Assembly (NCBI GenBank): GCA_001786765.1
Contig: MFTH01000003.1
Coordinates: forward strand, 1-44,509
Source: Candidatus Nomurabacteria bacterium RIFCSPHIGHO2_01_FULL_37_25
GTDB lineage: Bacteria > Patescibacteriota > Minisyncoccia > Phycocordibacterales > UBA9973
Length of the DNA stretch: 44,509 bases
Reading direction: 5' to 3'
The translations under genes and the position numbers were made by a program. This document shows, piece by piece, positions 3,913-44,300 of the stretch. A model generated the notes under the pieces. That model saw nothing but the letters and a program-made list of their open reading frames with translations. It was not told the origin of the DNA and did not search any database. How positions within the stretch are numbered: position 1 is the stretch's first letter; the number at the start of each line of letters is the position of its first letter.

Positions 3913-3990
3913 GCTCGCTTGGAAGTATAGCTTACGAACGATAAAATGGGAGGTGTTTCCGCATTTCCTTCTGTTTCTTTGCAACAAATT
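3913..3990 (+). repeat. att-like repeat copy 2
   Basis: GCTCGCTTGGAAGTATAGCTTACGAACGATAAAATGGGAGGTGTTTCCGCATTTCCTTCTGTTTCTTTGCAACAAAT. Confidence 0.85.
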
Positions 3991-4057
3991 CGTAAATTAG
4001 TTTCCATTGTTAAAAATGATTAATAGTTATTCTTTTACCCCCACCCCTAAAAGTATA

Positions 4058-4990
4058 TTATACCTCCCAAACTTTATCACCGGGAGCAAAATCAACCTGG
4101 TATTCTGGAATACCTAATTTAAGACCGTATTTTTTAGCATCTTTATAAAGTATAGGGTTTTTCAAATCCACTTTAAATATTTTCCCTTGATAAACTATAA
4201 AATGGTAATGTTTATTTTTAAAATCAGCATACCAATTGTGTTTTTTGTCTAAGTTTTGACTTAATTGTTCAGCAATTTTATCTGCATTTTCTTCTTTAAT
4301 TTCAACAGTATGTAAAGTCCATTGTTTTTCCCAAGGTGTTTTATGTTTTTCTTTGATAGGTTCTATATTAGTTTTTAAGATTTTTATACCTTTCAGAATA
4401 TCTTTATTTTCTAAACTTTCTTCTATTACTACACCTCTATAGTAGAACTTTTGAAACTTAACCATATCAATATTGGAAAATACTCTAGGTATTGAAGACT
4501 CTTTTATCATTCCAAGTGAAGGACTTGAACCAAATCCTATATATTCAAGACTTTTCTTTTTTGCCTTACAAACATATTTAATAGCTGGAATAAGGTCAGT
4601 GTCTGAACTTATCACAATTGCTGTATCGTATAGATTGTCTGTTGCGCCTATTACTAAATCTACTGCTAGTTTTATATCTACACCCTTCTCTCTAATATTA
4701 CCATCATCATACATTATTCTTCCGTGTTTTACTTCAAATCCTTCTGCTTTTAAGCTATTCAAAAATGTCTGCTGATTTTTTACCATCTTTTCTGCTTTTT
4801 CTGAACCATCAACATTTCTCACTATTCCTATGTAGTATCTTTTTGATACCAATACTCTTTCTCCAACTAGATGTTCTATAAAAGCAGAATAATCAATCCT
4901 TGCCAATTTTTCTGGTATTCCTAAATCTTTCAATCTTCTGTAGGTATTACCCCCATCAATATATACAGCGACCCTTTCTTTTTTATCCAT
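4058..4990 (-). CDS. NYN (LabA/DUF88, PIN-like) ribonuclease fused to an uncharacterised C-terminal domain
   Basis: VYIDGGN, EKGVDIKLAVD and SSDTDLIPA acidic motifs in aa 1-180; ~130 extra aa follow. Confidence 0.85.
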   Translation of the reverse strand: MDKKERVAVYIDGGNTYRRLKDLGIPEKLARIDYSAFIEHLVGERVLVSKRYYIGIVRNVDGSEKAEKMVKNQQTFLNSLKAEGFEVKHGRIMYDDGNIREKGVDIKLAVDLVIGATDNLYDTAIVISSDTDLIPAIKYVCKAKKKSLEYIGFGSSPSLGMIKESSIPRVFSNIDMVKFQKFYYRGVVIEESLENKDILKGIKILKTNIEPIKEKHKTPWEKQWTLHTVEIKEENADKIAEQLSQNLDKKHNWYADFKNKHYHFIVYQGKIFKVDLKNPILYKDAKKYGLKLGIPEYQVDFAPGDKVWEV

Positions 4991-6247: not shown

Positions 6248-6350
6248 GCTCGCTTGGAAGTATAACTTACGAACGATTAAATGGGAAGAGGTGTTCTCTT
6301 ATCCGTCTGTTTCTTTACAACAAATGAGGCAATTACTGGCGATTTTTTAG
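6248..6350 (+). repeat. att-like repeat copy 3
   Basis: GCTCGCTTGGAAGTATAACTTACGAACGATTAAATGGGAAGAGG...; open frame reads LLAWKYNLRTIKWEEVFSYPSVSLQQMRQLLAIF*. Confidence 0.85.
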
Positions 6351-8515: not shown

Positions 8516-8660
8516 CAAAAAGCCCACCACAGGTAGAGACCGAAGTCTCTCGCACAGGTTTCCCTGTACGGCAGATCGTGCAACCCCATGATGGGTTTTT
8601 TATTCACGATCTGACTTTTAACCATACCTTAAACTTTGAAATTCAAGGGTTAGGTCTCTA
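8516..8660 (-). ncRNA. Structured cis-regulatory/antisense RNA with c4-like architecture
   Basis: Minus strand has hairpins GTACAGG-GAAA-CCTGTGC and GAGAC-TTCG-GTCTC, closing stem CCCATCAT/GTGGTGGG plus U-tract, and nested complements TAGAGACC/GGTCTCTA and CAGATCGTG/CACGATCTG. Confidence 0.6.
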
Positions 8661-8804: not shown

Positions 8805-8876
8805 CTCCGGGGGTAGGGATCGAACCTACGACCAATCGCTTAACAGGCGATCGCTCTACCACTGAGCTACCCCGGA
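8805..8876 (-). tRNA. tRNA-Asn(GTT)
   Basis: 72-nt cloverleaf TCCGGGG...CCCCGGAG; anticodon arm ATCGC-CTGTTAA-GCGAT; T-loop GGTTCGAT; full CCA not encoded. Confidence 0.97.
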
Positions 8877-14007: not shown

Positions 14008-14496
14008 ATGACAAAAAAAATCGTACTAGCGGGAGGGTGCTTTTGGGGACTGGAAGATTTAATAAGGAAACAGGTGGGTGTGGTAAACACTACCGTCGGC
14101 TATACGGGTGGGAGTGTTTTAAACCCGACTTATGAGAATCATGAAGGTCATGCGGAGGCGGTGGAGATAGAATATGATAGCGAAAAAACCTCATACCGAA
14201 AATTGCTTGATTTCTTTTTTCAAATTCACAATCCCACTACTTTAAATCAACAGGGTAATGACCGAGGCGCTTCATACCGTTCGGCAATATTCTATGCTAA
14301 TGAAGAAGAAAAAAAAGAAGCTCTGAATTTTATAGATATTGTGAATAAGTCTCTGCGTTGGAAGGATAGAGTAGTCACGACTTTAGAACCTTTAGAAAAA
14401 TTCTATCCTGCGGAAGATTATCATCAGGATTATTTAGAGAAAAACCCGGGCGGATATACTTGTCATGCCATATACTTTGATAGTTATTTAAAATAA
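14008..14496 (+). CDS. msrA: Peptide-methionine (S)-S-oxide reductase
   Basis: [31 protein letters not shown]. Confidence 0.95.
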
Positions 14497-14507
14497 ACGT
14501 ATGGTAT

Positions 14508-14777
14508 TCACTTTTCGGTTTTTTTTGAATATACATCTATAATATCTTTGAGTGTTTTTCTTGCTATGGGTTCAGTGATTACATTTTCATCTAAATATCT
14601 TTGTGCTTCCCTCATGTAAAAATCCCTTATATTGTTTCCTTTTTCATCTTTACATGGCTCCATTATATGTCCACTGATAAATAAAACAATTTGCATATCA
14701 GTTGGTTTTTCAGGTCCAGGATTTTTCTCCATAGATGACATAATTTTAATTATATATGATATGATAAATATATACAA
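14508..14777 (-). CDS. Hypothetical protein (likely start at 14741)
   Basis: ORF fills the intergenic gap; no motif recognised. Confidence 0.55.
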   Translation of the reverse strand: MYIFIISYIIKIMSSMEKNPGPEKPTDMQIVLFISGHIMEPCKDEKGNNIRDFYMREAQRYLDENVITEPIARKTLKDIIDVYSKKTEK

Positions 14778-14826
14778 ATAAATTTATCATGGAATAAATA
14801 GAAAGGTAATATAATGGTTATATATT

Positions 14827-16221
14827 ATGAACAGAAAATCTTTACCTAGAAAATCTAAAAAAAATACTGCTTTCGATTCGACAATTTTTCTCGCGTATGA
14901 TATCCGGGGAATTTATCCAGAGCAGATTAATCCTGAGATAGTTTATAAAATTGCCCAGGCTTATGCCAAGTTTCTAAATCCTAAGACAATAGCTTTAGGT
15001 CGCGACGTTAGACTTTCTGGTCCCGAATTATTGGCAGCGGTAAAACAAGGACTGCTTGATCATGGTGTGGATGTAATTGATATTGGTGTAGTTAGTACCG
15101 AAATGCTTTATTTTGCGGTTGCTGATTTAGGGTTGGATGGTGGGATTACAATTTCGGCTTCACACAACGTTATGGAATATAACGGACTGAAAATTACCCG
15201 AGAAAATGCATTACCCATTTCAGTAAATTCTGGACTTGAGGATATTAAGAGAATTGTTCTTGACAATTATAATTATAACAGTGATGTGAAAGGAATGGAA
15301 ACCAGTAAGGATATCACCAAAGATTATTTGGAGAAATGTCTATCTTTTGTTGATATTAGCAAAATTAAAAAACTGAAAGTCGTAGCTAATGCTATGTTTG
15401 GTCTAGCTCTTCAGAATATTAAAAAAATAAATCTACCAATAGAATTAATCCTCCTAAATGATATTCCAGACGGACATTTTCCAAAAGGTCAACCAAACCC
15501 TCTGCTTCCCGAACAACAGATCGAAATAATTGAAACTATAAAAGCAACTCGTCCAGATTTTGGAGTTGCTTGGGACGGCGACGGGGATAGATTTTTTATT
15601 TTTGATGAAAAAGGTCGCTTTATCCCGCCGTATTATGTATTGGCATTTCTAACACGATATTTCTGCTCCAAATTTTCTAATGCCAAAGTTGTGCATGATT
15701 TGCGGCTGGCTTGGGCTATTGAAGACGAAGCTCGGGCAGTGGGAGCAAAAACTATTCAAAGTAAGGCAGGTTATCCATATGTACGAAAACTCATGCGCGA
15801 CAACGAAGCCTTAATAGGCTGTGAGACTTCAGGACATATGTTTTTTAAAGATTTTTTTTATACAGATAACGGTCTTATACCATTTTTAATAATGCTGGAG
15901 ATTGTGTCAGAATTAGGGGAGAAAACTTCAAAACTATTTGATAAATATTTTGAAAATTACCCGATTTCGGGCGAGATCAATATAAAGATTATGGGTCATA
16001 ACCAAGTTCAACTAATTTTAGAAAGACTAGAGCAACATTTCGTTCAAAATTCTGATATTAGCGTCAATAAAATTGATGGAATAAGTTTTGAGCATCCGAA
16101 ATGGCGGGCGAACATTAGGGGGTCAAATACAGAGCCATTTGTGCGAATGAACGTAGAAGCAAAAACTCAAGAAATTTTAAAACAAAAAACGGAAGAGCTG
16201 CTGGAATTAATAAGAAAGTAA
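14827..16221 (+). CDS. Phosphomannomutase/phosphoglucomutase
   Basis: AYDIRG, SASHN, WDGDGDR, GCETSGH, RGSNTEP. Confidence 0.95.
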   Translation: MNRKSLPRKSKKNTAFDSTIFLAYDIRGIYPEQINPEIVYKIAQAYAKFLNPKTIALGRDVRLSGPELLAAVKQGLLDHGVDVIDIGVVSTEMLYFAVADLGLDGGITISASHNVMEYNGLKITRENALPISVNSGLEDIKRIVLDNYNYNSDVKGMETSKDITKDYLEKCLSFVDISKIKKLKVVANAMFGLALQNIKKINLPIELILLNDIPDGHFPKGQPNPLLPEQQIEIIETIKATRPDFGVAWDGDGDRFFIFDEKGRFIPPYYVLAFLTRYFCSKFSNAKVVHDLRLAWAIEDEARAVGAKTIQSKAGYPYVRKLMRDNEALIGCETSGHMFFKDFFYTDNGLIPFLIMLEIVSELGEKTSKLFDKYFENYPISGEINIKIMGHNQVQLILERLEQHFVQNSDISVNKIDGISFEHPKWRANIRGSNTEPFVRMNVEAKTQEILKQKTEELLELIRK

Positions 16222-16247
16222 AATTTTGGTATAATTATCTTTGATAT

Positions 16248-16649
16248 ATGATTAAAGGATTTACATGTGGAGCGCTCGATTTACTGCATGCGGGACATGT
16301 CTTGATGTTGAAAGAGTGCAGGGCTCAGTGCGATTATTTAATCGTGGGTCTTGAAATCGATCCATCAGTAGATAGATCTTGGAAAAAGAAGCCTATTGAA
16401 ACTCTAGAAGAAAGAAGAATCCGACTAGAGGGTTGTAAATATGTGGATGAAATAATTACATATACTGATGAAGTTGATCTTTATAACCTTTTAAAGAAAC
16501 TAAATCCCGATGTACGCTTTATGGGCGCGGACTGGAAAGACAAGCCGAATTACTCCAGAGATAAATTGCCTGATATGAAAGTTGTTTATAACAGTCGAGA
16601 TCACAAATTCAGCAGTAGTAATTTAAGGGAAAGGATAAAAAACCAATAA
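16248..16649 (+). CDS. HIGH-motif nucleotidyltransferase (TagD/RfaE-C cytidylyl/adenylyltransferase-like)
   Basis: GALDLLHAGH, MGADW, FSSSNLR. Confidence 0.85.
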   Translation: MIKGFTCGALDLLHAGHVLMLKECRAQCDYLIVGLEIDPSVDRSWKKKPIETLEERRIRLEGCKYVDEIITYTDEVDLYNLLKKLNPDVRFMGADWKDKPNYSRDKLPDMKVVYNSRDHKFSSSNLRERIKNQ

Positions 16650-16701
16650 ATAGAAACAGGACGGATTGTTTCTCTGGTTTAAAAATGCTATATTTATTAA
16701 T

Positions 16702-17277
16702 ATGGATAAAGCTTTTGCGGTACGCACACAAGAGGAAATGCTGGATGTTTTGATGACTCCGGAATCTAGCGGACCGGATGTTCACTATTTTATGATTCGG
16801 GGAGGCAGTGAGAAAAAAAATATTACTATCTGGCAAGCCGGATTAGTCGGCGAAGAATATATTAAAACTTACGGGCATTATCATGTTAGTGATTTTATAG
16901 AAACTTACACAGTGCTTGCGGGTGAGGGAATAATTCTTTTACAAAATAGAAAAATAAATGAGAAAGGAATTTTAATTGATGACGAGGTGGAAGAGGCGCG
17001 GGCGATTTTTGTCAAAGCCGGTAGCGTTGTGCAAATACCTAAAAATGCTGGGCATCTTGCTGTAAACACAGGGGAATCATGGCTGGTAACATCAGACGAT
17101 AGTCCAGTTAATTTAAATAAAATGAACGAAGCCGCTTGGCCTGTGCATGCGGATTATGAGCCAGTCAGGAAACTCCACGGTTTTGCTTATTATGTCGTGA
17201 AAAAAAATGGCAAGCCTTTTTTTATTAAAAACGAAAACTATAAAAATGTTCCCGAAATCATTATAGAAAACGCATAA
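16702..17277 (+). CDS. Cupin-type (archaeal-like) glucose-6-phosphate isomerase family protein
   Basis: EYIKTYGHYH...ETYTVLAGEGIILLQ and GHLAVNTG. Confidence 0.8.
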   Translation: MDKAFAVRTQEEMLDVLMTPESSGPDVHYFMIRGGSEKKNITIWQAGLVGEEYIKTYGHYHVSDFIETYTVLAGEGIILLQNRKINEKGILIDDEVEEARAIFVKAGSVVQIPKNAGHLAVNTGESWLVTSDDSPVNLNKMNEAAWPVHADYEPVRKLHGFAYYVVKKNGKPFFIKNENYKNVPEIIIENA

Positions 17278-17395
17278 TCCCGTTAGAAGTCGCGATCGCG
17301 TTTAATTAATATAAATATGAAAGAAGATATAAATAAAATTAATAGCATAATTTATCAGATGCGAAATACGATCGCGATCTGCTTCTAAACGGGAT
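17277..17395. mobile_element. CCCGTTAGA/TCTAACGGG miniature element, copy upstream of glgA
   Basis: TIR ATCCCGTTAGAAG...CTTCTAAACGGGAT overlaps the glgA ATG; internal uORF at 17317..17388. Confidence 0.85.
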
Positions 17396-18896
17396 GAAAA
17401 TATTTTCCTCCAATATCCATAAAAAAATCCGGCCGCTGAAAATTTTATTTGTTGGAAGCGAGATAGCGCCTTTTATAAAAATCGGAGGATTGGGAGAAGT
17501 TTTGCAAGCCTTGCCGAAAGCCCTTTCAGAGCTTGGGCATGATATAAGGACGATGACGCCTAAATATGCGTCAATAGACGAGAAAGAATTTCCTATGACT
17601 GTAATTTTAGACGGGCTTTTGGTTCCAAATTCGGATAGCGAAGATCTAATATGTAATGTGAAAAAATATAAAAATGGCGAGAGCCCAGTAAACTATTTTT
17701 TAGAAAACCAAGAATATTATGAAAAAAGAGGCAGCGTCTATGGCTATGATGACGACCCTGCTCGTTGGGCGCTACTTGCAAAGGGCACTTTGGAATTTAT
17801 AAGGCATAAAATGAATGAATGGAAGCCTGATATAATTGTCGCTAACGATTGGCAAGGGGGATTGATACCAAATTATATGAAATGTGAATACAGCAAAGAC
17901 CCCATAATTTCTAAAATCGCTTCCACTTTTATCATTCACAATATTTATTATCAAGGAATGTTTGACCATAAACATACGAGTGAACTCGACTATGATGATG
18001 GACAGTCCCAAGTTCCTTCCATTACTGATCCAAGGCTACTTAAAATAAATTTTATGCGTCGGGGGATTCGTTATGCGGATGTAATAAATACTGTTTCTCC
18101 AAATTATGCGCGGGAGATTACTACTCCTCAGTACGGAGAAGGTTTAGACCAACTATTGCAAGAAAGGCGAAGCAGACTTTTTGGAATTCTGAATGGTATA
18201 AATTATGAGAATTATAATCCGGAGACAAATCCTTATGTTGAATTCAAATATAACGAGGATAATTTAGACGAACGGATAAAAAATAAAAAAATATTGCAAC
18301 AAAAATTTAATTTACCAGAAAAAAAAGACGCTTTTTTGGTAAGTATAATCGGCCGTCTGGCGGAACAAAAGGGTATTAATTTGGTAGCTGATACAATCGA
18401 GCCTCTGCTTGAGAATTTTGATTTTCAATTCATAATATTAGGAGCGGGAGAATCGCATTTTGCCGATTTTTTTGGCGAGCTTGATAAAAAATACAAAAAT
18501 GTGGCTACGCATCTTTCTTTTGACAATATTTTACCACATAGTATTTACGCTGGAGCCGATGCTATCCTCATTCCTTCTCGATTTGAGCCATGCGGATTGA
18601 CCCAGATGGAATCAATGCGCTACGGAGTCGTGCCGATAGTGCGAAAAACTGGAGGACTCGCTGACAGTGTCAAAGATCATACTTCCAGAGAGGATCCAGG
18701 TACTGGCTTTGTCTTTGAACACTATGATAAATATGCCTTTTTAGGCACTTTTATGCGCGCTTATGAAATATTCAAATACCCAAAAATTTGGCAAGAAATA
18801 CAGAAACGCGCAATGAAGGAGAATTTTTCTTGGGAAAAATCAGCCAAGGAATATGAGAAACTTTTTATGCGAGCCCTTAATCAACTTAATTCCTAA
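17394..18896 (+). CDS. glgA: Glycogen synthase (GT5)
   Basis: KIGGLGEV, ANDWQ, TIHN-like IIHN, VSPNYA, PSRFEPCGLTQM, RKTGGLADSV. Confidence 0.95.
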   Translation: MKIFSSNIHKKIRPLKILFVGSEIAPFIKIGGLGEVLQALPKALSELGHDIRTMTPKYASIDEKEFPMTVILDGLLVPNSDSEDLICNVKKYKNGESPVNYFLENQEYYEKRGSVYGYDDDPARWALLAKGTLEFIRHKMNEWKPDIIVANDWQGGLIPNYMKCEYSKDPIISKIASTFIIHNIYYQGMFDHKHTSELDYDDGQSQVPSITDPRLLKINFMRRGIRYADVINTVSPNYAREITTPQYGEGLDQLLQERRSRLFGILNGINYENYNPETNPYVEFKYNEDNLDERIKNKKILQQKFNLPEKKDAFLVSIIGRLAEQKGINLVADTIEPLLENFDFQFIILGAGESHFADFFGELDKKYKNVATHLSFDNILPHSIYAGADAILIPSRFEPCGLTQMESMRYGVVPIVRKTGGLADSVKDHTSREDPGTGFVFEHYDKYAFLGTFMRAYEIFKYPKIWQEIQKRAMKENFSWEKSAKEYEKLFMRALNQLNS

Positions 18897-18907
18897 AAGT
18901 AAATATG

Positions 18908-19028
18908 ATCCCGTTAGAAGCCACGATCACAATTTATAAAATAAAAATTATGAAAATAAATTTAGATAATATTACTAATTTAACTTATCAGATGCAAAAC
19001 ATGATTGCGATCTGCTTCTAAACGGGAT
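18908..19028. mobile_element. CCCGTTAGA/TCTAACGGG miniature element, copy upstream of GH57
   Basis: Same TIRs; internal uORF at 18950..19021, extendable to ATG 18905. Confidence 0.85.
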
Positions 19029-20514
19029 GAAATGGGCTAACTTTTTACATTTTTACCAACCAGCTGACCAGCAACCAGATATTTTGGAGGCAATCGTTAC
19101 GCAAAGCTATCGGCCGATTATCGAGGGTATAAAAAAAAATAAAAACGTTCATCTGACGATAAATATTAACGGCGCGCTTTTTGAATTGTTGAATAAATTT
19201 GGGCACAAAGACATAATTGAAGATTTGAAAAATTTAGTAAAAGAAGGCCGTATTGAAATAACAGGATCGGCAAAATATCACCCTCTCTTGCCGCTTCTAT
19301 CTGAGGAGGAAATAGAAAGACAAATAACATTAAACACAGAAACGCTAAAAAAATTTTTAGGAGATTACACTCCTAACGGATTTTTTTCTCCAGAAATGGC
19401 CTACGACGACAGAATCGGAAAGATTATAGAAAAACTTGGCTTTAAATGGCTTATTTTAGATGAAATTTCCTGTGGCGGAGAGGTGGGAGGTGTTGATTAC
19501 AATCAAATTTATAAACTAAAAGACACTGATTTTAAAGTTTTTTTTCGTAATCGAAGACTTTCTAATTTAATCATGAGCGCAGTCGTTCGATCTCGTGATA
19601 CTTTATTGGAAGCGATGCAAGACGAACTGAAAAGTGATGATTATATCGTGACTGCTATGGACGCGGAGACTTTTGGGCATCATCGACCAGGACTTGAAAA
19701 AATGCTTTTTGAAGTTTTTGACACTCCAGAATTTGAACTTGTAAAAATTTCCGATATTTCAAAATTTTACAAAGAAAAAAAAGAAATTTCTCCTGCCAAG
19801 GCTACTTGGGCGTCGAGTAAAGAAGATATAGACAATGGCATTCAATTTCTTTCGTGGAATGACCCAGAGAATATGATTCATGGCTGGCAGTGGAAATTTA
19901 CAAAACTCGTTTTGAATGAAGTTTATAGTATGAACAAAAATAATGAGCGTTATGAACTTGTGCGCGAGAAAATGGACAAAGCGCTAGCGTCAGATCATTT
20001 TTGGTGGGCATCCGCCAAACCCTGGTGGAGCCTAGAGATGATCGAAGATGGGTCATTTAATTTGCTTGACACTTTAAGGCATATTCCTGATGTAAAATTG
20101 GAAATCTTGTCTGAAGGAAGGGATTATTATGAGAAAATAATTACAACGGCTTTTAACTGGCAGCGCACTGGCAAAATAAGGATGATGATGCAATCACAAA
20201 GAGACATATTAAGGATTCCATTCAAAGACCGTACTTTGGGCCGTCCGGGGGCGGAAAATGTGTATTATGCTTTTCTAGCAATGATGGAAAAGCTAAAAAA
20301 AGAAGCAGCAAAACGCGGAGAATACGAGCAAGCAATTCTTTGGCGTGATGCGATTTATAAACTTAAACATAAATTGGATATTTATGACACTATGAATGCT
20401 ATCGATTTAGTGCGTGTGAAAATTCCCCACGAGGAGGTTGAGAAAACTATTATTGAATATGAAGAGAAATATCGTCGCATGCGTGGCGGGCAACCCGAGC
20501 AACGCGGAGGGTAA
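19027..20514 (+). CDS. Glycoside hydrolase family 57 protein
   Basis: HFYQP, GSAKYHPLLP, FSPEMA, DAETFGHH, SDHFWW. Confidence 0.9.
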   Translation: MKWANFLHFYQPADQQPDILEAIVTQSYRPIIEGIKKNKNVHLTININGALFELLNKFGHKDIIEDLKNLVKEGRIEITGSAKYHPLLPLLSEEEIERQITLNTETLKKFLGDYTPNGFFSPEMAYDDRIGKIIEKLGFKWLILDEISCGGEVGGVDYNQIYKLKDTDFKVFFRNRRLSNLIMSAVVRSRDTLLEAMQDELKSDDYIVTAMDAETFGHHRPGLEKMLFEVFDTPEFELVKISDISKFYKEKKEISPAKATWASSKEDIDNGIQFLSWNDPENMIHGWQWKFTKLVLNEVYSMNKNNERYELVREKMDKALASDHFWWASAKPWWSLEMIEDGSFNLLDTLRHIPDVKLEILSEGRDYYEKIITTAFNWQRTGKIRMMMQSQRDILRIPFKDRTLGRPGAENVYYAFLAMMEKLKKEAAKRGEYEQAILWRDAIYKLKHKLDIYDTMNAIDLVRVKIPHEEVEKTIIEYEEKYRRMRGGQPEQRGG

Positions 20515-22209
20515 TTGAAGAGAATTTTTATGATACAAGATAAGGAAAACGATTGGTTCACAGAATTTAAAAAAGGCGAAGAATACAAAGCATTCCTAAA
20601 AAATCCAGTCGCTTATTTTTGCGCCGAATATGCGCTTGAGTCCACACTCCCAACTTATGCCGGAGGATTAGGTGTGTTGGCTGGAGATTTAGTTAGAGAA
20701 GTGGCTTTACAAAAATTTCCATTGATATCAGTGGGGCTTTTTTATAAAAAAGGGCAAAATATATTATCCACTGAAAAAATTTTGCCAAAAAATAAATTAA
20801 AACCAGTGCTTGACGAGAGTGGTAAAGAAGTAATTGTTTCTTTACCTATGGAGAATCGGCCGGTTAAGGTCAGAGCATGGCAATGGGAAGACGGTGGGGC
20901 GAGGGTTTATTTGCTGGATACTGATATCCCGGAAAATCGCGCAGAGGATAGAAAAATTACTGAACAGCTTTACAACGAAGATAGAGATATGCGCCTTAGA
21001 CAAGAAATTCTTTTAGGTATTGCTGGGTTTCGTCTGCTCGCGCAATTAGGTTATCATCCTTCGGTTTATCACTTAAACGAAGGACATTCCGCTTTTTTAG
21101 CTCTTGAACTTATTAAACACGAAATGGAACATCAGCAAGTTGACTTTAAAGAGGCCTGCGAATATGCAAAAAAACATATTGTTTTTACCAACCACACCCT
21201 CCTTATGTCCGGGCAAGAAAGATTTTCTTCAGATAAAGTGAAGCTCTTTATAGATCCCTGCGCTAAGGAAATATGTCTTAATCAGAATGAAATCGCCGAA
21301 CTTGGCACTTTAGAAAATAATCCAGATACTTTTTCTATGACAAATTTTTCCTTTAAGCTATCTACTAAGTCAAATGCAGTCAGCAGACTGCATCAAGAGA
21401 AATCCATAGAAATCTGGCCTAATAAAAACATTGAAAATGTAACCAATGGAATTTTTATATCAAGGTGGGATAAAGTAGACGGAGTTTCCGAAAAAAATAT
21501 TTGGGCGACGCATTTAAAAAACAAGAAAAAACTATTGGATTTTATCAGAGAAAAAACTGGAGAAATTTGGAATGAAACAGACTTGATATTTGTATGGGCG
21601 AGAAGGTTGGTTGAATACAAACAGCCGTTATTTTTTCTGGACAATATTGAAAAACTGCTTGAAATTTCAAAAAATTCTCCGATTCCCATCAGAATAGTTT
21701 TCTCGGGACCTATTACTACAGAAGATAACCCTTTTGTTTTGGAAATCAAGAAAATAATTAAAGAGAAATTAAAAGGAATTGTTGTTTTTATTCCTGATTA
21801 TAATACTGACATAGCGGAAATCTTAACATCAGGCGCAGATATTTGGTTGAACACTCCAATGGTTGGTTTTGAGGCTTGTGGAACTAGTGGTATGAAGGCT
21901 GGGTTAAACGGAGTGCTTGCATTATCTACCCAAGACGGCTGGGTATATGAGGTGGAAGAAGAAGATATCGGCTGGGTGATAAATGATTCACAAAATAGTG
22001 AAGAAATCTTTACTTTAGTAAAAGAAAAGATTATTCCAATTTATTATGCTCACTTAAAAAATCTACAAAATTCTATGTGGCTAAAAAAAATGATGCGAGC
22101 AAGAAATTTGATTTTGGAAAATTTTTCAACTTCGCGAGTTCTGAGAGAATATATAGAAAAATTATACATACCAATTATGAAACAAAAACATACCCACAAG
22201 ATCGACTAA
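20515..22209 (+). CDS. glgP: Alpha-glucan phosphorylase (GT35), compact form
   Basis: AYFCAEY, YAGGLGVLAGD, HLNEGH, ARRLVEYKQ, EACGTSGMKA. Confidence 0.9.
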   Translation: MKRIFMIQDKENDWFTEFKKGEEYKAFLKNPVAYFCAEYALESTLPTYAGGLGVLAGDLVREVALQKFPLISVGLFYKKGQNILSTEKILPKNKLKPVLDESGKEVIVSLPMENRPVKVRAWQWEDGGARVYLLDTDIPENRAEDRKITEQLYNEDRDMRLRQEILLGIAGFRLLAQLGYHPSVYHLNEGHSAFLALELIKHEMEHQQVDFKEACEYAKKHIVFTNHTLLMSGQERFSSDKVKLFIDPCAKEICLNQNEIAELGTLENNPDTFSMTNFSFKLSTKSNAVSRLHQEKSIEIWPNKNIENVTNGIFISRWDKVDGVSEKNIWATHLKNKKKLLDFIREKTGEIWNETDLIFVWARRLVEYKQPLFFLDNIEKLLEISKNSPIPIRIVFSGPITTEDNPFVLEIKKIIKEKLKGIVVFIPDYNTDIAEILTSGADIWLNTPMVGFEACGTSGMKAGLNGVLALSTQDGWVYEVEEEDIGWVINDSQNSEEIFTLVKEKIIPIYYAHLKNLQNSMWLKKMMRARNLILENFSTSRVLREYIEKLYIPIMKQKHTHKID

Positions 22210-22232
22210 AAAAGATATGATATAATGAAGTT

Positions 22233-22631
22233 ATGCAAATAAATTTACAAGGCAAAAATATTGAATTAACACAGGCTATAAAAGACTATATTTCAAAGAG
22301 GGTTACTAATTTAGAAAAATTACTCCTAAAGATTGAGCAAGGGCACGGGAAAGTAAGGGTAAATTTTGAAGTAAGTAAATCTACTAATCATCACAAATCA
22401 GGCGAGATTTTTCATGCGGATTGTTTAATCAAAATAGACGGAAAAGAATTTTATGGGAGCGCGGATAAAGAGGATTTATATGCCGCGGTGGATGCGGTAA
22501 AAGACAGTCTTTACAATGAAATAAATAAAAATAAAGATCGCTCGCAGACGCTCTTTAAGCGTGGAGCTTCTAGCGTTAAAAAGATGTTGAAAGGTCTCTC
22601 CAAAAGAAATCCTTTTACTTCGAAATACTAA
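22233..22631 (+). CDS. hpf: Ribosome hibernation factor (HPF/RaiA)
   Basis: NIELTQAIKDYISKR and EDLYAAVDAVKD. Confidence 0.9.
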   Translation: MQINLQGKNIELTQAIKDYISKRVTNLEKLLLKIEQGHGKVRVNFEVSKSTNHHKSGEIFHADCLIKIDGKEFYGSADKEDLYAAVDAVKDSLYNEINKNKDRSQTLFKRGASSVKKMLKGLSKRNPFTSKY

Positions 22632-22714
22632 AATATTAGCAAGTCTAGCGACAGCAGAGCTTATCATTGCTAAAAATAAGAACATGTATAATAGCAACGG
22701 TCGTGTCTATTATG

Positions 22715-23644
22715 TTAGTTTTGTTTCTGGAATTCTGTGTAAGATATTTCTTTTTTGCCTTCCGGTAAGACTTTTTCTATAACGAATTTACTATTTTCTA
22801 ATTTAGCTTTAGTGATTATGATACGCCTAGTTTGAAACCCGCCTTCGCCAAGGCTTCGGCGGGCAAGAAAGAAAGTCCTAGGCCAAACGGCGTATGCTCT
22901 AAATTTGTTGTAATTTAAAATTCCATCGTCATTTAAATTAATAAGTCCCTCTTCTTTTTTTATTTTTTTACAAAACGTTACTTCTTTTTCATCTTGCGGT
23001 ATTGTCTTGATTTTACCTTCAATAAATTCTGGCAGAATTTTTACTAAAAGTTCTCCACCAATTTTTATTAAGCGCTTGCGTAAATCTCCCGCTTTTTCAT
23101 CATTACCTATTTCAATTTTTTCTTGCGCGATGATATCGCCAGCATCCATTTTATATATCATCTTTTGAATAGTTATTCCTGTTTCTGTATCTCCATTCAA
23201 TATAGCGGACTCTACCGGCGAAGCTCCGCGATATTTTGGCAACAGAGAATAATGCGCATTTATTGAACCTAATTTGGGAATATTTAATATATTTTCGGGA
23301 ATTATTTTTCCATACGCGACAACTAAGAAGAAATCTGGAATATTTTGCTCACCACGAAAATTTTTTGCTAAAAATTTTCTCTGTCCGTCGCCGCCCTTCC
23401 TACCAAGGGTTCTCAAAACATTCCAGATTTCTTCTTTCTCTAATTTTTTTGGTTTCAAACAGGTGATATTATTTTGCTCAGCAAAAAGAGCAACGGGTGA
23501 AGCTTCTACGCGCAAACCTCTACCTTTAGGAGCGTTAGGCGAAGTGACAATAAGCGATGGTATAAGCCCATTTTGTTTTAAAATCTCCAAGGTTTCGCTT
23601 GCTACATCCGGCGTTCCCCAAAATATGAAATTTATTTTATTCAT
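22715..23644 (-). CDS. fmt: Methionyl-tRNA formyltransferase with two in-frame palindromic inserts
   Basis: FWGTP, VVAYG, HYSLLPKYRGASP, TGITIQKM..MDAG. Confidence 0.95.
   Translation of the reverse strand: MNKINFIFWGTPDVASETLEILKQNGLIPSLIVTSPNAPKGRGLRVEASPVALFAEQNNITCLKPKKLEKEEIWNVLRTLGRKGGDGQRKFLAKNFRGEQNIPDFFLVVAYGKIIPENILNIPKLGSINAHYSLLPKYRGASPVESAILNGDTETGITIQKMIYKMDAGDIIAQEKIEIGNDEKAGDLRKRLIKIGGELLVKILPEFIEGKIKTIPQDEKEVTFCKKIKKEEGLINLNDDGILNYNKFRAYAVWPRTFFLARRSLGEGGFQTRRIIITKAKLENSKFVIEKVLPEGKKEISYTEFQKQN
22838..22863. repeat. 26-bp in-frame hairpin element in fmt
   Basis: CCCGCC-TTCGCCAAGGCTTC-GGCGGG; encodes ARRSLGEGG. Confidence 0.7.
23331..23430. mobile_element. ~100-bp in-frame MITE-like element in fmt
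   Basis: TIR AAATCTGGAAT/ATTCCAGATTT with inner hairpins GAAAATTTTT-TGCT-AAAAATTTTC and CCCTT..AAGGG. Confidence 0.75.
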
Positions 23645-33329: not shown

Positions 33330-34328
33330 ATGTTAAATCCAAATTTAAAATTAAATCCGAAAATTTTCAATGAGGACGTTGAGCAAGTGCCGATAAGGAA
33401 GGGTTTCGGTCAGGGGTTGCTTATAGCCGGCGAGATAAATAAAAATGTCGTGGCGCTTTGCGCGGATTTGACAGAGTCTACCATGATGAATTTTTTCAAA
33501 GAAAAATTCCCGGAGCGTTTTGTGGAAGTCGGTGTGGCAGAGCAAAATTTAGTTACGGTTGCTTCTGGTATGGCGGCTATGGGGAAAATCCCATTTTGTT
33601 CTTCTTACGCTATGTTTTCTCCGGGCAGGAATTGGGAGCAGATACGGACGACTATAGCTTATAATGACCGACCGGTAAAAATAGTCGGTTCGCACGCAGG
33701 TATTTCTGTCGGGCCAGATGGTGGCACACATCAAGCGCTTGAAGATATTGCTTTGATGCGAGTACTTCCAAATATGGATGTGTTTAGTCCATGCGACAGC
33801 ATAGAAGCCAAAAAAATGACGCTTGTTTTGGCTAAGACTAAGAGACCGGCATATTTGCGTTTAGCTCGTGAAAAGACCCCGGTAATAACAACAGAAGAAA
33901 CTCCTTTCACATTAGGCAAAGCAGAGATTTATTGGATGCCGGATGTGGGGTTGGTGCAAGTGGGGATAATTGTCACAGGAGGCCTGATGCACCGCGCATT
34001 GCTTGCGGCGAAAGAATTAGAAATGGAAGGAATAAAAACAAAAGTGCTAAATTTATCTTCCATTAAGCCGATAGATAAGGACGCCATAATATCTCTAGCA
34101 AAAGAAACTAAAAGAATTGTAACAGTAGAGGAACATCAAGTAGCTGGGGGAATGGGTTCCGCAGTCGCAGAAATTCTAGCTCAAAATTATCCAGCGCCAA
34201 TAGAGTTTATCGGAGTGCAAGATAAATTTGGCCAGAGTGGCACACCAGATGAGCTCGTAGAACATTACGGTATGGGTAAAGATTCTATCAAGAAAGCTGT
34301 GAAGAAAGTGTTAATCAGAAAAATCTAG
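33330..34328 (+). CDS. Transketolase C-terminal subunit
   Basis: GVAEQN, GPDGGTHQ, VEEH..GGMGS. Confidence 0.93.
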   Translation: MLNPNLKLNPKIFNEDVEQVPIRKGFGQGLLIAGEINKNVVALCADLTESTMMNFFKEKFPERFVEVGVAEQNLVTVASGMAAMGKIPFCSSYAMFSPGRNWEQIRTTIAYNDRPVKIVGSHAGISVGPDGGTHQALEDIALMRVLPNMDVFSPCDSIEAKKMTLVLAKTKRPAYLRLAREKTPVITTEETPFTLGKAEIYWMPDVGLVQVGIIVTGGLMHRALLAAKELEMEGIKTKVLNLSSIKPIDKDAIISLAKETKRIVTVEEHQVAGGMGSAVAEILAQNYPAPIEFIGVQDKFGQSGTPDELVEHYGMGKDSIKKAVKKVLIRKI

Positions 34329-34470
34329 AAAATTGAATTTTTTCAACACGCATATTTGCCAGCTGGCAAATTGCTATGCTCGTCGCTCAAGAAAATAATA
34401 AATGGAATACCATTTTTATTTTCTAAGCTTCTGCGCAATGTTTCAAAAACTCAATTTTCTAGATTTTTCT
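34317..34470. mobile_element. 154-bp MITE-like element whose TIRs supply both convergent stop codons
   Basis: Perfect 20-bp TIR AGAAAAATCTAGAAAATTGA (34317-34336 / 34451-34470) with internal hairpins. Confidence 0.85.
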
Positions 34471-35472
34471 AGCCTTATAATCTTCCGGAGCGTTTTTTAG
34501 ATATTCTTCTAATTTTTCTCTAAATAAAAGTCCTTTTTGCGCCCCGATTTCTTGGACAACGGACATAGAATTAATTGGTCCCCAAGTGAATGCTTCAAGG
34601 GGAGATTTACCAAGGGCTAAAGCAGCGGTGAAAGTTGAAGAGAAAGCGTCTCCGGCTCCTGTGCGTTCAAGTGGTGGAGTAATATCAGGGTATATAGGAA
34701 GATACCAAAGTTCTCCGTTGTTATAAAAATATGATCCTTTTGGTCCGTCACTTATTGAAACCATTTTAGGGCCTAAAGCTTGAATACCTTTTGATAATTC
34801 TAAGATATCTTTATTTTCAGTTCTATTTTCTTTTTTCAAAATCATTTCTGCCTCTTCAACATTACAAAAAAATATTTCTGTGCGCGCGTAAATTTCTTTT
34901 AATTTTTCTACGCCAAGTTTTATCTGAAAAGTTCCCGGTTGGAAAGCGAGCTTTGTATCTACATTATTTTTTAAATATTCCAATATTTCTTTATGGTAAG
35001 AAAGAGAATTGTCTGCTAGAGAACTCAAATATATCCAAGACACTTTTTTTAATGATGGAAGTTTATAATCAAAATCAGTGTGTTTAATTAAAATTGTGCG
35101 ATCAATGTCATACCAAAGCACATAATGATAATTTGTAAGTTTGTTTTTTTCTGTCGTGACATAATCAGTGATAACTTTATTACTTTTTAAACTGTCAAGA
35201 CATTCTTTGCCATGTCTATCATCTCCAATATTTGTGACGATAGCAGAATTTAATCCAAGGCGCGCCGCAGAGACAGCGGCATTTGGGCTATTTCCTACTG
35301 CAGGCACTACTGTTACTGATTCGTAAGGAATTTTATCTCCAAAACGCATACATAATTCACAAGCATCAGAATCTATTTTGCAATATACGTGAGCGTCTTT
35401 TAACCTTATAAATGCATCTATAACGATATCCCCAATCGCCAAGAAATCTATTTTATTTTTATTTTCGCTCAT
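34459..35472 (-). CDS. PfkB-family carbohydrate kinase
   Basis: GNSPNAAV, FQPG, CNVEE, DGPKG, ERTGAGDAF; start at 35472 (the track's longer N-terminus is repeat-derived). Confidence 0.9.
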   Translation of the reverse strand: MSENKNKIDFLAIGDIVIDAFIRLKDAHVYCKIDSDACELCMRFGDKIPYESVTVVPAVGNSPNAAVSAARLGLNSAIVTNIGDDRHGKECLDSLKSNKVITDYVTTEKNKLTNYHYVLWYDIDRTILIKHTDFDYKLPSLKKVSWIYLSSLADNSLSYHKEILEYLKNNVDTKLAFQPGTFQIKLGVEKLKEIYARTEIFFCNVEEAEMILKKENRTENKDILELSKGIQALGPKMVSISDGPKGSYFYNNGELWYLPIYPDITPPLERTGAGDAFSSTFTAALALGKSPLEAFTWGPINSMSVVQEIGAQKGLLFREKLEEYLKNAPEDYKARKI

Positions 35473-35515
35473 GATAATATTGTAGCATATATTTTTAAAT
35501 ATAATACTTTGAATT

Positions 35516-35640
35516 ACGAAACTCTTTCTAGGCATGTCTTTTTCTAGGGTACGGATTTTTTTAAGCTTAAAAAATCCTGAAGTTCTCGGCTCGACAGCCT
35601 CGAAACCCCCTAAAAAAGACATGCCTTCGACGAGTTTCGT
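35516..35640. mobile_element. 125-bp nested-hairpin element, copy A
   Basis: TIR ACGAAACTC/GAGTTTCGT flanked by AATT; 124/125 identical to 41014..41138. Confidence 0.9.
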
Positions 35641-35664
35641 AATTCACGATATAATAACAATAAT

Positions 35665-38083: not shown

Positions 38084-39040
38084 ATGCAAAATCAAATTAA
38101 AATTTTTTGTTTAAAAGAATGGTCAGCTGATTCTATTCAGGGTAAAAAAGATTATGAACTTTTGGATACCGGAGAAGGGGAGAAGTTAGAGAGATTTGGT
38201 CCGCATATTTTCGCGCGACCGTTTGAAGACGCAGTTTGGCCGAAGGCGCTGACAGAGGAATTGCAGAAAACTTGGGAGAATGCAGATGGTAAATTTTGGA
38301 GTGGAAAGACAGGCGCCAAAGCTGGATGGAAGATGTCAAAGAGACACTTTGACAAGTGGGAGATGGAATACAAAGGCATAAAGTTTTGGGCTATGCCGAC
38401 GCCGTTTAGGCATTTAGGATTTTTCCCGGAACAAGCGAGCCATTGGAATTTTATAGAAGATAAAATTTCCGCCTTGACCAGGTCAAGGCGGACAAAAAAT
38501 TCCTTACCAAACTTGCCCGATAGACCAATAAAGTTTTTAAATCTATTCGGCTATACTGGCGTAGCGAGCCTTTTTGCTTTGCGCGCCGGCGCGGAAGTGA
38601 CGCATGTGGACGCTTCAAAACAAGCTCTCACTTGGGCAAAAGATAATCAGAAATTGTCTAATTTAGAAAAATTACCAATGCGCGTAATCGAAGATGATGT
38701 TCTAAAATTTTTAGAAAGAGAAATAAAAAGAGGCAATAAGTATGATGCCGTTATCATGGATCCGCCCAAGTTCGGCCGAGGACCCAAAGGTGAGACTTGG
38801 AAAATTGAAGAAATGTTGCCGAAACTTCTTTCACTTGTGAAAAAAGTTTTAAATAATAAACCGCTTTTTGTAATTCTGACTTCCTATTCGACAGATTCTT
38901 CTGCGCTTTCTTTAGGATATGCGCTTGCTGAGATAGTAACCGATTATGGTGGAAAAGTAGAGGTGGGTGAGCTTTGCGCGCTAGAAAAGTCTAATAATCG
39001 TTTTATCTCGCTTGCTAATACAGCGGTGTGGGGTGTATAA
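38084..39040 (+). CDS. Class I SAM-dependent methyltransferase (RlmI/RlmK-like)
   Basis: LGFFPEQ, LNLFGYTG, HVDAS, IMDPPKFG. Confidence 0.85.
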   Translation: MQNQIKIFCLKEWSADSIQGKKDYELLDTGEGEKLERFGPHIFARPFEDAVWPKALTEELQKTWENADGKFWSGKTGAKAGWKMSKRHFDKWEMEYKGIKFWAMPTPFRHLGFFPEQASHWNFIEDKISALTRSRRTKNSLPNLPDRPIKFLNLFGYTGVASLFALRAGAEVTHVDASKQALTWAKDNQKLSNLEKLPMRVIEDDVLKFLEREIKRGNKYDAVIMDPPKFGRGPKGETWKIEEMLPKLLSLVKKVLNNKPLFVILTSYSTDSSALSLGYALAEIVTDYGGKVEVGELCALEKSNNRFISLANTAVWGV

Positions 39041-41029: not shown

Positions 41030-41138
41030 GCATGTCTTTTTCTAGGGTACGGATTTTTTTAAGCTTAAAAAATCCTGAAGTTCTCGGCTCGACAGCCTCG
41101 AAACCCCCTAAAAAAGACATGCCTTCGACGAGTTTCGT
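41014..41138. mobile_element. 125-bp nested-hairpin element, copy B
   Basis: Same internal orientation as 35516..35640, one mismatch at 41016; provides the TAG of the upstream gene. Confidence 0.9.
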
Positions 41139-41182
41139 AATTCAAAGTTAAAGAATAATTAAAAAATAATAAAAAATCACTT

Positions 41183-41221: not shown

Positions 41222-41304
41222 ATCCCGTTAGAAGCCGCGGTCGCAATAATTATAAGGTTGAATTAAGTAGTCACGGTATGACCGCGACCTGCTTCTAACG
41301 GGAT
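41222..41304. mobile_element. CCCGTTAGA/TCTAACGGG miniature element at the leuS start
   Basis: TIR ATCCCGTTAGAAG/CTTCTAACGGGAT; ATGAA direct repeat at 41218-41222 and 41303-41307. Confidence 0.9.
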
Positions 41305-44300
41305 GAAAGAATACGACCATAAAAAATTAGAGAAGAAATGGCAATCTATTTGGGAAAAAAAGAAAATATATCAAGCTCAAAACTCTTTTAAAAAACCCAA
41401 GTATTATAGTCTAATCGAGTTTCCTTATCCTTCTGGTGATGGGCTTCATGTCGGTCATCCGCGACCTTATATTGGGATGGATGTTATTTCTAGAAAAAGA
41501 AGGATGGAAGGTTTTAATGTCCTTTATCCTATAGGTTGGGATGCTTTTGGTTTGCCGACGGAAAATTATGCTATCAAGACAGGCAAGGACCCGCGAGTTG
41601 TCACTAAAGAAAATACTGATACTTTTCGTGGGCAAATAAAATCACTTGGCATTTCTTTTGATTGGTCGCGGGAGATAAATACGACTGACCCAAAATATTA
41701 CAAATGGACGCAGTGGATATTCTTGCAATTTTTAAAAAAAGGTTTGGCGTATAAAGCCAAAATGACGATCAATTGGTGTCCGAAATGTAAAATTGGTCTT
41801 GCTAATGAAGAGGTTGTCAATAATTCTTGCGAGCGTTGCGGAACGACAGTGGAGAAACGCAAAAAAGAACAATGGATGCTCGCCATTACTAAATACGCAG
41901 ATAGATTAGATAAAGATTTAGATGATGTAGATTATCTTCCTCAAATCAAACTAGGACAAAGGAATTGGATAGGACGGAGCGAAGGGGCAGAGATAGAATT
42001 TAAGATTACTGTGAAACAAAAAAATAATTTTGGCGCCTTCGCCCTCGGAGGCAAAGGACAGGGAACCCACGACGCTCAAAATCATTCTTTTGTTTCGCAG
42101 TCTGTAAAAGTTTTCACCACTCGACCTGATACTATTTTTGGAGTCACATTTATTGCTTTAGCGCCTGAAATCGCGAAAAAACTCACAGGTAAAGATTTTG
42201 GTATTAAGTCAGATGTTGATAGGGAAAATAAACAAAAAATAGGAGTGGATACCGGGCTTGAAGCAAAAAATCCCGCAAATGGCGAAATGATACCTGTTTT
42301 TGCGGTCAATTATGTATCAGCGGAATATGGCACCGGAGCTATTATGGGTGTGCCAGCGCATGACGAGAGAGATTTTGAATTTGCCAAGAAATATAATTTA
42401 CCGATTAAGGAAGTTATTGAACCGGTATTTGTTGATACTGAAGGTATTGACGCGGTGCAAAAAGATAAACCTATGGTAGAACGAGAAGCAATATTGGCTA
42501 TTGTTAAACATTGGTCGGAAGATAAATATCTGGGTCTAAAATGGAAAAAAGTTAATTGGGGAACTTTTATTAGTGGTGGAGTAGAAAAAGGTCAGACATC
42601 TGAACAAGCGGCTAGAGCCGAAATAGAAGAGGAAACAGGCTATTTTAATTTGAAATTAATTAAAACTCTTGGTCGTTATCATAGTAAATTTTTTCATACA
42701 CCAAAAAATGAAAATCGTTTTGGTCATTTTAACACTTTCTATTTTGAGTTAGAAAATGGGAAACAAAATGAAATATCTAAAGAAGAAAAAGAGAAACACG
42801 AAATATTGTGGCTTAGTCCCAAAGAGATAGAGAAATTTTTAACAACAGAAAGTTTGCGTTATAGGTGGAATATTTTACAGGGTTATAAAAAAATATATAC
42901 TGGCAGAGGAATTCTCGTCAATTCAGGTAAATTCTCTGGTATGGATTCGGAGAAAGCAAAGAAAGAAATTATAAAATTTGTTGGCGGGAAAGAAAAAACA
43001 ACTTTCAAACTTCGCGATTGGATTTTTTCAAGGCAAAGGTACTGGGGAGAACCGATACCGGTGATTTATTGTGAAAATTGCCGAGTCGGAAGCCTTGCTT
43101 CCGACAAACGGAAGCAAGGCTTCCGACTGGAAAATGCTGGCTGGATTCCAGTGCCGGAAAAAGATTTACCAGTAGAACTTCCAAAAGTTAAAAATTATCA
43201 GCCGACGGATAGCGGAGAATCACCGCTTGCGAATATTCCAAAATGGGTGAATGTAAAATGTCCGCAGTGTAAAGGTAAAGCTAAAAGAGAAACAGACACA
43301 ATGCCGAATTGGGCAGGTTCTAGCTGGTATTATCTTCGTTATACTGATGATAAAAACAAAAAAGAATTCGCTTCACAGAAAAATCTACGCTATTGGTTAG
43401 GGGTTGACCCCGTTAGAGAAAGGTCGCCCCAAGGTGACCGAAGCACTGCCTCTGGCAGGGCGTTCTCTAACGAGGTTGACCCCGTTAGAGAAAGGTCGCC
43501 CCAAGGTGACCGAAGCACTGCCTCTGGCAGGGCGTTCTCTAACGGGGTGGATTGGTACAATGGGGGAAATGAGCATACGACACTGCATCTTCTATATTCT
43601 CGTTTTTGGCATAAATTTCTTTTTGATTTAAAACTAGTCCCTACTAATGAGCCATATATGAAAAGAACTTCGCACGGACTTATTTTAGCCGAAGGCGGGG
43701 AAAAAATGTCTAAATCCAAGGGCAATGTTATTAATCCGAATGATATTGTGAAAATATATGGAGCAGATACGCTTAGATTGTATGAAATGTTTATGGGTCC
43801 GTTTGATCAGGCGATAGCTTGGAGCGAAGAAGCAATCATTGGCCCGAGGAGATTTTTGGAAAAAGTTTGGAGAATAGGAATGTCAAAGTGTCTCTTTGAC
43901 AAAAAATCACCAATGTCAAAGAGACACTTTGACATTACGAGACTTCTTCATAAAACCATCAAAAAAGTATCCGAAGATATAGAAGAAATGCGTTTTAATA
44001 CAGCAATTTCCGCGCTGATGATACTTGCAACAGAAATGGAAAAAGCTGAAAAGCTAACACCTGAAAGCTATAAGCTATTCCTGCAAATTCTTGCGCCATT
44101 TGCGCCACACATTGCAGAAGAGCTTTGGCAGAATCTGGCTCCCCAAGGTCTCGCCTTTGGCTTTCTTAAAGCGAGACCTTCTTCCTCCAGTATTCATTCC
44201 TCAGCTTGGCCGAAGTGGGATGAGAATTTAATAAAAGATGAAGAAATAAAAATTATAATTCAGATAAATGGAAAAGTTAGAACGGAGATTGTTATACAGG

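Follow-up and report, generated by a model that had tools for sequence, protein, structure and literature searches.

Mycobacterial interspersed repetitive units (MIRUs), reportedly described by Supply and co-workers in 1997, are used as copy-number genotyping markers, a use that reflects their tandem arrays. They are seemingly mobile small repeats at start codons inside operons, with a co-directional short open reading frame (ORF) that is coupled to the downstream gene, overlaps it with a spacing of -4 nt and likely keeps the cost of insertion small (PMC12548453). MIRUs are 40-100 bp long, have G-C-rich internal repeats and tetranucleotide direct repeats, and their sites are found empty in M. 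leprae (PMC3184786). Judged by description, they appear to be the closest known analogue of the elements considered here, which occur in a stretch of 44,509 nt from Candidatus Nomurabacteria bacterium RIFCSPHIGHO2_01_FULL_37_25 (assembly GCA_001786765.1, contig MFTH01000003.1, positions 1 to 44,509 of the forward strand), referred to below as the window. Two hairpins of about 120 nt (17277-17395 and 18908-19028) lie directly in front of glgA and of a GH57 glycoside hydrolase gene, and the AT of each start codon is paired into a 13-bp terminal stem. Both are members of a start-codon family resembling MITEs (miniature inverted-repeat transposable elements), in which an ORF carried by the element probably re-establishes translational coupling in a genome that lacks Shine-Dalgarno sites.

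Correia/NEMIS, Nezha (of cyanobacteria) and ERIC elements lie mostly in intergenic DNA, at targets such as TA, and we know of no family of these types that sits at start codons, regenerates the ATG and carries a frame-conserved relay ORF. Rickettsia palindromic elements (RPEs) are palindromic repeats found in frame in protein-coding genes. Coupling through leader peptides or upstream ORFs (uORFs), as in rpmI-rplT, the MS2 coat and lysis genes and the bicistronic design, is fixed, locus-specific and conserved in orthologues, whereas the module described here is portable with a mobile repeat. Bacterial MITEs are recognised by empty versus filled orthologous sites, and Neisseria REP2 and related Borrelia upstream repeats lie immediately upstream of genes, to which they supply an ATG and a 5' leader (PMC3184786); the behaviour of RPEs is in part also taken from this source.

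The two hairpins in the window share one architecture. Each has ATCCCGTTAGAAG at its 5' end and CTTCTAAACGGGAT, the reverse complement with one bulged A, at its 3' end. The window has four exact matches to the 13-mer, against about one expected even with two mismatches allowed, and two of the four matches bound a third, shorter copy at the start of leuS. The 3' end of copy 3 is the same ...ACGGGATGAAA and provides the AT of the leuS start codon. Inside the terminal inverted repeats (TIRs) is an inner stem, which is an intact 8 bp in copy 1 and degraded in copy 2 (CACGATCA/TGATTGCG), where six Watson-Crick pairs remain beside a single G-U and a single A-C. The terminal repeats pair in the predicted RNA folds, for which the minimum free energies are -34.1 kcal/mol (copy 1) and -29.2 kcal/mol (copy 2) and the z scores against dinucleotide shuffles are -3.3 and -4.6. 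Copies 1 and 2 each contain a 23-codon uORF (17317-17388 and 18950-19021) with its stop 5 nt before the main ATG. In copy 2 the frame stays open 5'-ward to an ATG at 18905, which lengthens the ORF to 38 codons, while the leuS copy has no long uORF if the ATG must lie in the loop. An earlier note on this DNA had described TIRs that take in the AT of the downstream ATG, an inner stem in both copies and two 23-codon uORFs with like endings, and all three descriptions hold, the second with the decay of the copy 2 stem added. The shared IAICF ending of the two peptides is a mere translation of the conserved nucleotides of stem and repeat. Direct repeats at the flanks are perfect at copy 3 (ATGA/ATGA) and short of one A at copy 2; the upstream duplicate is gone at copy 1.

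The orthologous operons of relatives show how the window came by its copies. Homologues of glgA that are 81-86% identical sit in the same GPI-glgA-GH57-phosphorylase operon in four relatives (L130, L132, L134 and L136). The GPI-to-glgA junction measures 4-20 nt in these relatives and 116 nt in the window, and the glgA-to-GH57 junction 1-8 nt (77 nt in L136) and 130 nt, respectively. Both junctions are empty in L130, L132 and L134, while in L136 (GCA_030691205.1) the glgA junction is empty and the GH57 junction is filled by a different, 71-nt member of the family (ATCCCGTTAGAAAT...ATTTCTAATGGGAT, 4501-4571), which sits at the GH57 start codon used by copy 2 and is flanked by a cleanly duplicated ATGA. 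Either the L136 member struck this target independently, or an old insertion was once shared and has been lost, precisely, from the three other relatives. Since the gaps in the relatives are 1-20 nt at both junctions, the GH57 junction of L136 excepted, the window copies are lineage-specific insertions. From the alignment of the L134 junction, TAA AAATAAAC ATGAAATGGGC, with that of the window, TAA AAGTAAAT ATG[A]TCCCG...CGGG ATGAAATGGGC, it follows that GH57 ancestrally started at ATG 18905; copy 2 lies directly behind this codon, and the present GH57 ATG is rebuilt from the last two bases of the element. The window elements were recently inserted and belong to a mobile family whose targets are start codons in general; they are not a domesticated regulator of glycogen genes.

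The earlier note had taken the two hairpins for a domesticated translational control, specific to this locus, of two consecutive glycogen-metabolism genes. In favour of such a control, the two copies resemble each other (82% identity across 87 nt) and precede adjacent genes of one pathway, but it is contradicted by the empty sites in the orthologous glycogen operons, by the third copy at leuS and by about 170 copies that mark other genes' start codons, spread over 152 contigs from many Patescibacteria lineages. The glgA protein is also encoded on contigs of Rifle-type groundwater Patescibacteria, including GCA_001786035.1 and GCA_001785715.1, and both elements are identical in 10 of 10 contigs of this species, so there is no sign of locus-specific tuning; identity throughout makes the within-species comparison uninformative on variation. 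Conservation of the uORFs at orthologous loci, which the note had proposed as a check, fails because those loci are empty. A control of the glycogen genes is therefore barely credible. A conserved cis-regulatory leader of these genes (riboswitch, attenuator or leader peptide) was likewise rejected, being absent from the operons of the relatives and without a match in Rfam.

The family is large and nearly confined to one phylum. A scan of one genome per species for ATCCCGTTAGAAGNC, for which our own estimate of chance matches is about 4,400 in 596 Gb, gave at least 119 stretches. Matches in genomes outside the candidate phyla radiation (CPR) lack the inverted partner; those that have it, 46-204 nt downstream in Patescibacteria, come almost all from that phylum. 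The lineages include Nomura-, Kaiser-, Yanofsky-, Jorgensen-, Zambryski-, Lipton-, Moran-, Sungii- and Levyibacteria and many Saccharibacteria. A two-ended pattern found 120 further stretches in metagenome contigs, while two patterns gave 0 matches in viral contigs, where carriage by phages was thus not found. Pooled, there are at least 239 physical elements bounded by the TIRs ATCCCGTTAGAAG and CTTCTAACGGGAT, with lengths concentrated at 113-127 nt. An ATG that opens a long ORF adjoins 174 of the 239 (171 unique sequences); most of the others have the same atgaATCCC...GGGATgaa flanks but lie on short contigs. A flank repeat of the form ATNN...(AT)NN is present in 118 of the 171 (ATGA in 84, ATGG in 29 and ATGT in 5), compatible with a duplication of 2, 4 or 5 nt, and the logo of the target is ATG-R-A, with A at 93%. 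More than half of the elements with sufficient upstream sequence (85/145) directly follow a co-directional gene. At the 5' boundary two frames meet a stop, one at the TGA of ATGA and the other at the TAG within CCCGTTAGAAG, and upstream genes often end right there. Short GC-rich relatives of 46-76 nt occur inside genes; all six found there add a multiple of three nucleotides, the 2-nt flank repeat included, and are translated as DPVRS...SNGI.

The features of a MITE are thus present: TIRs around a short core, direct repeats at the flanks and orthologous sites that are empty or filled. No Rfam family was found on the elements at gathering or relaxed thresholds, the sole matches being a LOOT RNA and a tRNA in other parts of the window, and a promoter and terminator scan of 14400-22800 placed no sites in the elements, with counts not clearly above those of shuffles. 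The position logo gives no support to a -10-like signal ahead of the loop ATG. An integron attC site, which should have the inverse core RYYYAAC at its 5' end and the core GTTRRRY at its 3' end and mark cassette boundaries near an integrase, was rejected, as the order of the motifs is reversed on both strands (5' ..GTTAGAAG ... CTTCTAAC.. 3') and on either side lie housekeeping genes whose synteny is conserved. The context does not fit a REP/RAYT element either. No paper that gives the repeat sequence in a relevant context, or that describes MITEs in CPR/Patescibacteria, was met in the literature searched, and the family is apparently undescribed, as far as these searches show.

All family members are built from a 13-bp TIR, an inner stem of 7-8 bp and an A/T-rich loop, and the inner stem (7 bp) covaries, with A-T in 40 elements and G-C in 32 at one pair. 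The length, conservation and covariation of the stems (13 + 7 bp) are what would be expected if the hairpin acted otherwise at the RNA level, as an RNase III site that separates cistrons and releases the 3' arm, an mRNA stabiliser or a binding site for a conserved protein, with the ORF as a secondary feature. Correia/NEMIS elements of Neisseria are RNase III processing sites, and the terminal repeat, which hardly varies even between very distant lineages of Patescibacteria, hints that a conserved factor recognises it. At the covarying pair, however, G-U and A-C mismatches are equally frequent (3 and 3), where selection on the RNA fold alone should have produced a bias. An RNA-level role of this kind also leaves the frame-specific enrichment of ORFs, described next, unexplained, and the elements show neither an Rfam match nor promoter or terminator signals. 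It seems quite improbable.

The short ORF is a real feature of the whole family, and not one inherited ORF. A sense ORF of at least 19 codons that starts with ATG and ends at the TAA of the 3' repeat is present in 72 of 170 elements (mode 23, range 19-30), while ATG ORFs of that length number 3 and 13 in the other two sense frames and 6-7 in each antisense frame. When the loops are shuffled, 6.5±2.3 such sense ORFs are expected, with a maximum of 13 in 200 shuffles, against 71 observed in 158 elements; the antisense count, in comparison, equals its expectation (7 observed, 6.9 expected). The loops that bear the ORF have a median pairwise identity of 0.57, and clustering at 70% leaves an ORF-bearing member in 46 of 101 clusters. 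If every ATG ORF that reads through the 3' arm is counted, whether it ends at the TAA, ends at a TGA overlapping the ATG or fuses in frame, 63% of the elements have one, compared with 21% on the antisense strand. The start context of the ORFs is A-rich and has no Shine-Dalgarno motif, as is true of nearly every gene in the window.

What the ORF encodes varies greatly. Across subfamilies the peptides are unrelated except for the C-terminal residues encoded by the stem and repeat. Within the window subfamily (MK.N..KINN..YQ.R..IAICF), to which a Nomurabacteria copy encoding MKINIDKINNLIYQTRELIAICF (L093) belongs, close copies differ at 199, 213 and 306 first, second and third codon positions, a modest third-position excess, and 127 of 529 codon changes are synonymous. 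These figures would suit a functional micropeptide carried by the element. That the shared residues are only those set by the stem and repeat nucleotides speaks against one, as do the codon-position differences between copies 1 and 2 (5/6/4, counted by eye). Moreover, avoidance of stops alone can yield a third-position excess, and the pairs compared are not independent. The excess would fit translation together with stop avoidance better than a conserved peptide, and a micropeptide is very unlikely.

The genome itself suggests what the ORF may be for. Motifs resembling Shine-Dalgarno sites are nearly absent upstream of the 45 ORFs checked in the window, and TATAAT stands 6-12 nt before the ATG of several genes (for example at 16248, 22233, 32427 and 35665), which suggests leaderless mRNAs or very short leaders. 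In such an operon, with genes 1-20 nt apart, downstream genes presumably need termination-reinitiation or an unstructured start region; a 120-nt intergenic hairpin would therefore break translational coupling. At its target, ATG-R-A, the element has ATGR duplicated on both sides, and the AT of the 3' repeat rebuilds the ATG of the gene and leaves the gene intact, with its start codon buried in a stem of about -30 kcal/mol. Compensation would come from the sense ORF of 19-26 codons, which begins either at an A-rich, unstructured ATG of the loop or at the upstream duplicate of the start codon and ends at the TAA within the 3' repeat. Ribosomes could enter at the old start codon in copies 2 and 3 and at the loop ATG in copy 1. 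While translating this relay ORF, a ribosome would melt the 3' arm; it would terminate 4-5 nt from the ATG of the gene, after which it may start again at that ATG or free the site for another ribosome. Both routes of coupling, by unfolding of the RNA and by scanning ribosomes, are established (PMC12548453). That translation of the uORF melts the stem and licenses re-initiation, as the earlier note had supposed, is plausible and gains from the orientation-specific enrichment of ORFs across the family; the ORF is, however, not universal. The covarying inner stem, the almost uniformly forward orientation of an asymmetric subfamily (74 to 1) and the frequent placement directly behind a co-directional gene also speak for the relay.

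Several observations weigh against such a relay. In about 37% of the copies at start codons no ATG ORF reads through the 3' arm, and the ORF can thus not be obligatory. The loop ATG is predicted to be little more accessible than the main ATG, with mean unpaired probabilities of 0.36 and 0.29, and the predicted stability of the hairpin is alike in elements with and without the ORF. Within operons the frequency of uORFs is only modestly higher, at 52% versus 38% (raw percentages). An ORF from the duplicated upstream ATG meets an early stop in 39 of 52 cases and reaches the 3' repeat in 11, and read-through from that ATG was rejected as a general mechanism on the strength of these early stops; they are mildly clustered near the loop ATG (12/42 within -6..+1), which is suggestive, the cases not being independent. 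In the asymmetric subfamily (5' CCGCGRTC, 3' GAYCGCGAYCTG), the only one checked for orientation, 74 elements point forward relative to the gene and 1 backward, a ratio that could stem from a directional mechanism of insertion and not from selection. Finally, no pair of TIRs 0.3-4 kb apart that encloses a gene or transposase was found in the approximately 250 loci searched; the case for mobility is therefore made solely by empty and filled sites and by flank duplications.

The copies that lack a read-through ORF and the equal stem stability, together with close relatives that lack elements and peptides that are highly variable, would also agree with a purely selfish MITE, tolerated since its 3' repeat rebuilds the ATG, with the ORF and the orientation bias as by-products and no role in expression. 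An excess of ORFs some eleven-fold over the shuffle expectation (71 versus 6.5), limited to one sense frame and spread over 46 clusters whose loops are near-random in similarity, is hard to reconcile with this, as inheritance from a single ancestor would not keep A/T-rich loops free of stops across such divergence. We consider a purely selfish element rather unlikely, and a start-codon element whose ORF hands ribosomes on to the gene remains the reading that we favour.

Like MIRUs, the Patescibacteria elements insert at start codons, often within operons, have direct repeats at their flanks, leave empty sites in relatives and carry a co-oriented short ORF. Unlike MIRUs, with which they were compared by description only, they are single hairpins of about 120 nt with a 13-bp TIR that pairs the start codon and an A/T-rich loop, and host phylum and base composition differ as well. 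Their co-oriented ORF (in 42-63% of elements) has its stop 4-5 nt before the ATG (148 and 22 cases), and an ATGA overlap is seen in only 10-15. With the MITEs of the Correia/NEMIS, Nezha and ERIC types they share TIRs, short direct repeats at the flanks, the lack of a transposase, high copy number and long RNA hairpins. REP2 has no TIRs and brings a promoter and a ribosome-binding site, while the Patescibacteria elements have no promoter or Shine-Dalgarno signal and regenerate the gene's own ATG. The likeness to RPEs lies in the short GC-rich relatives, all six of which are in frame, including a 48-aa insert in leucyl-tRNA synthetase (LeuRS); the three start-codon copies, the sequence and the host phylum are different.

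Coordinates of the elements, their ORFs and the adjoining genes in the window.
Feature	Position	Strand	Details
Element copy 1, 119 nt	17277..17395	+	5' TIR 17277-17289; inner arms CGCGATCG 17291-17298 and CGATCGCG 17369-17376 (8 bp); 3' TIR 17382-17395
Copy 1 junction	17275-17277		Stop TAA of GPI; its last A is the first base of the element
Copy 1 short ORF, 23 codons + TAA	17317..17388	+	MKEDINKINSIIYQMRNTIAICF; start in A-rich loop; stop within 3' TIR, 5 nt before glgA ATG
glgA, glycogen/starch synthase, 500 aa	17394..18896	+	ATG regenerated by 3' TIR
Element copy 2, 121 nt	18908..19028	+	5' TIR 18908-18920; 3' TIR 19015-19028; final AT belongs to GH57 ATG
Copy 2 ORF, 38 codons	18905..19021	+	From ancestral GH57 ATG, 8 nt past glgA stop, through whole copy 2 to TIR TAA
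Copy 2 uORF, 23 codons	18950-19021	+	In-frame 3' portion of the 38-codon ORF; 5 nt to GH57 ATG
GH57 glycoside hydrolase, 495 aa	19027..20514	+	
Element copy 3, 83 nt, at leuS start	41222..41304	+	Short loop; ATGA flanks 41218-41221 and 41303-41306
Copy 3 ORF, 26 codons	41218..41298	+	MNPVRSRGRNNYKVELSSHGMTATCF; duplicated upstream ATG to TIR TAA, 4 nt before leuS ATG
leuS, leucyl-tRNA synthetase, 1043 aa	41303..44434	+	
Two tandem 72-nt GC-rich palindromic units	43402..43545	+	Termini CCCGTTAGAG / CTCTAACGG; in frame, 48 aa, in LeuRS catalytic core

The leuS gene has distinctive features of its own. The tandem units at 43402-43545 are, to judge from their termini, short in-frame relatives of the same superfamily. 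The 48 residues they encode lie between the conserved ...WLGVD and VDWYNGGNEH motifs, where T. thermophilus LeuRS has a single VD and no insert. Two more near-perfect palindromes are in frame in leuS (43077-43135 and 43879-43936); the first gives a 19-aa insert (RVGSLASDKRKQGFRLENA) that is not in T. thermophilus LeuRS, and an arm of the second (ATGTCAAAGAGACACTTTGACA) is found again at 38333-38354. In all, LeuRS has 1043 residues, compared with about 880 in solved bacterial enzymes.

Other repeats are present in the window. A separate 152-nt hairpin repeat with arms of 34-44 nt occurs twice (35510-35661 and 41008-41159, 95% identical); its first copy, located between divergent genes, overlaps the start that was called for ORF 34459-35622 on the minus strand, and its second lies at the 3' end of the ORF 39680-41029, just upstream of element copy 3. 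An inverted repeat at 34317-34470 (32-nt arms, 91% complementary, 90-nt spacer), located between the ends of two convergent ORFs, could be a MITE-like element or a bidirectional terminator. A LOOT RNA (Rfam RF03000, 83 bits, full length; 8535-8656, minus strand) lies beside a tRNA gene (8805-8876, minus strand). A direct repeat of about 90 nt in three copies (860-953, 3921-4011 and 6256-6347), 70-95% identical and containing ATGGGAAGAGGTGTTTCCGCATTTC..., possibly represents a shared leader or the conserved beginnings of small paralogous genes.

Paceibacteria, Saccharimonadia and Microgenomatia all share the near-invariant 13-bp terminal stem. Besides serving a transposase as recognition site, this stem might be bound by a conserved host factor, which would make the dispersed start-codon hairpins, by extrapolation dozens per genome, a genome-wide translational regulon that includes leuS and the glycogen genes; a mobile element would then have connected many genes to one trans-acting switch, with the relay ORF setting the basal level; we regard such a regulon as a speculative and improbable extension. 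For annotation, gene callers will err at these sites through wrong starts, spurious small ORFs and N-terminal extensions, and the short in-frame relatives inflate essential proteins such as LeuRS. The conserved repeat is also a simple marker of presence or absence at the strain level. If the reading favoured here is true, Patescibacteria, small-genome and largely uncultured organisms, would harbour a mobile element that owes its survival to insertion exactly at start codons, together with a module of its own for handing over ribosomes. It would be a second, independent case of a strategy so far described only for mycobacterial MIRUs, carried out here via a hairpin that sequesters the start codon, and it would offer a natural, repeated experiment on translation start and coupling in organisms without Shine-Dalgarno sites.

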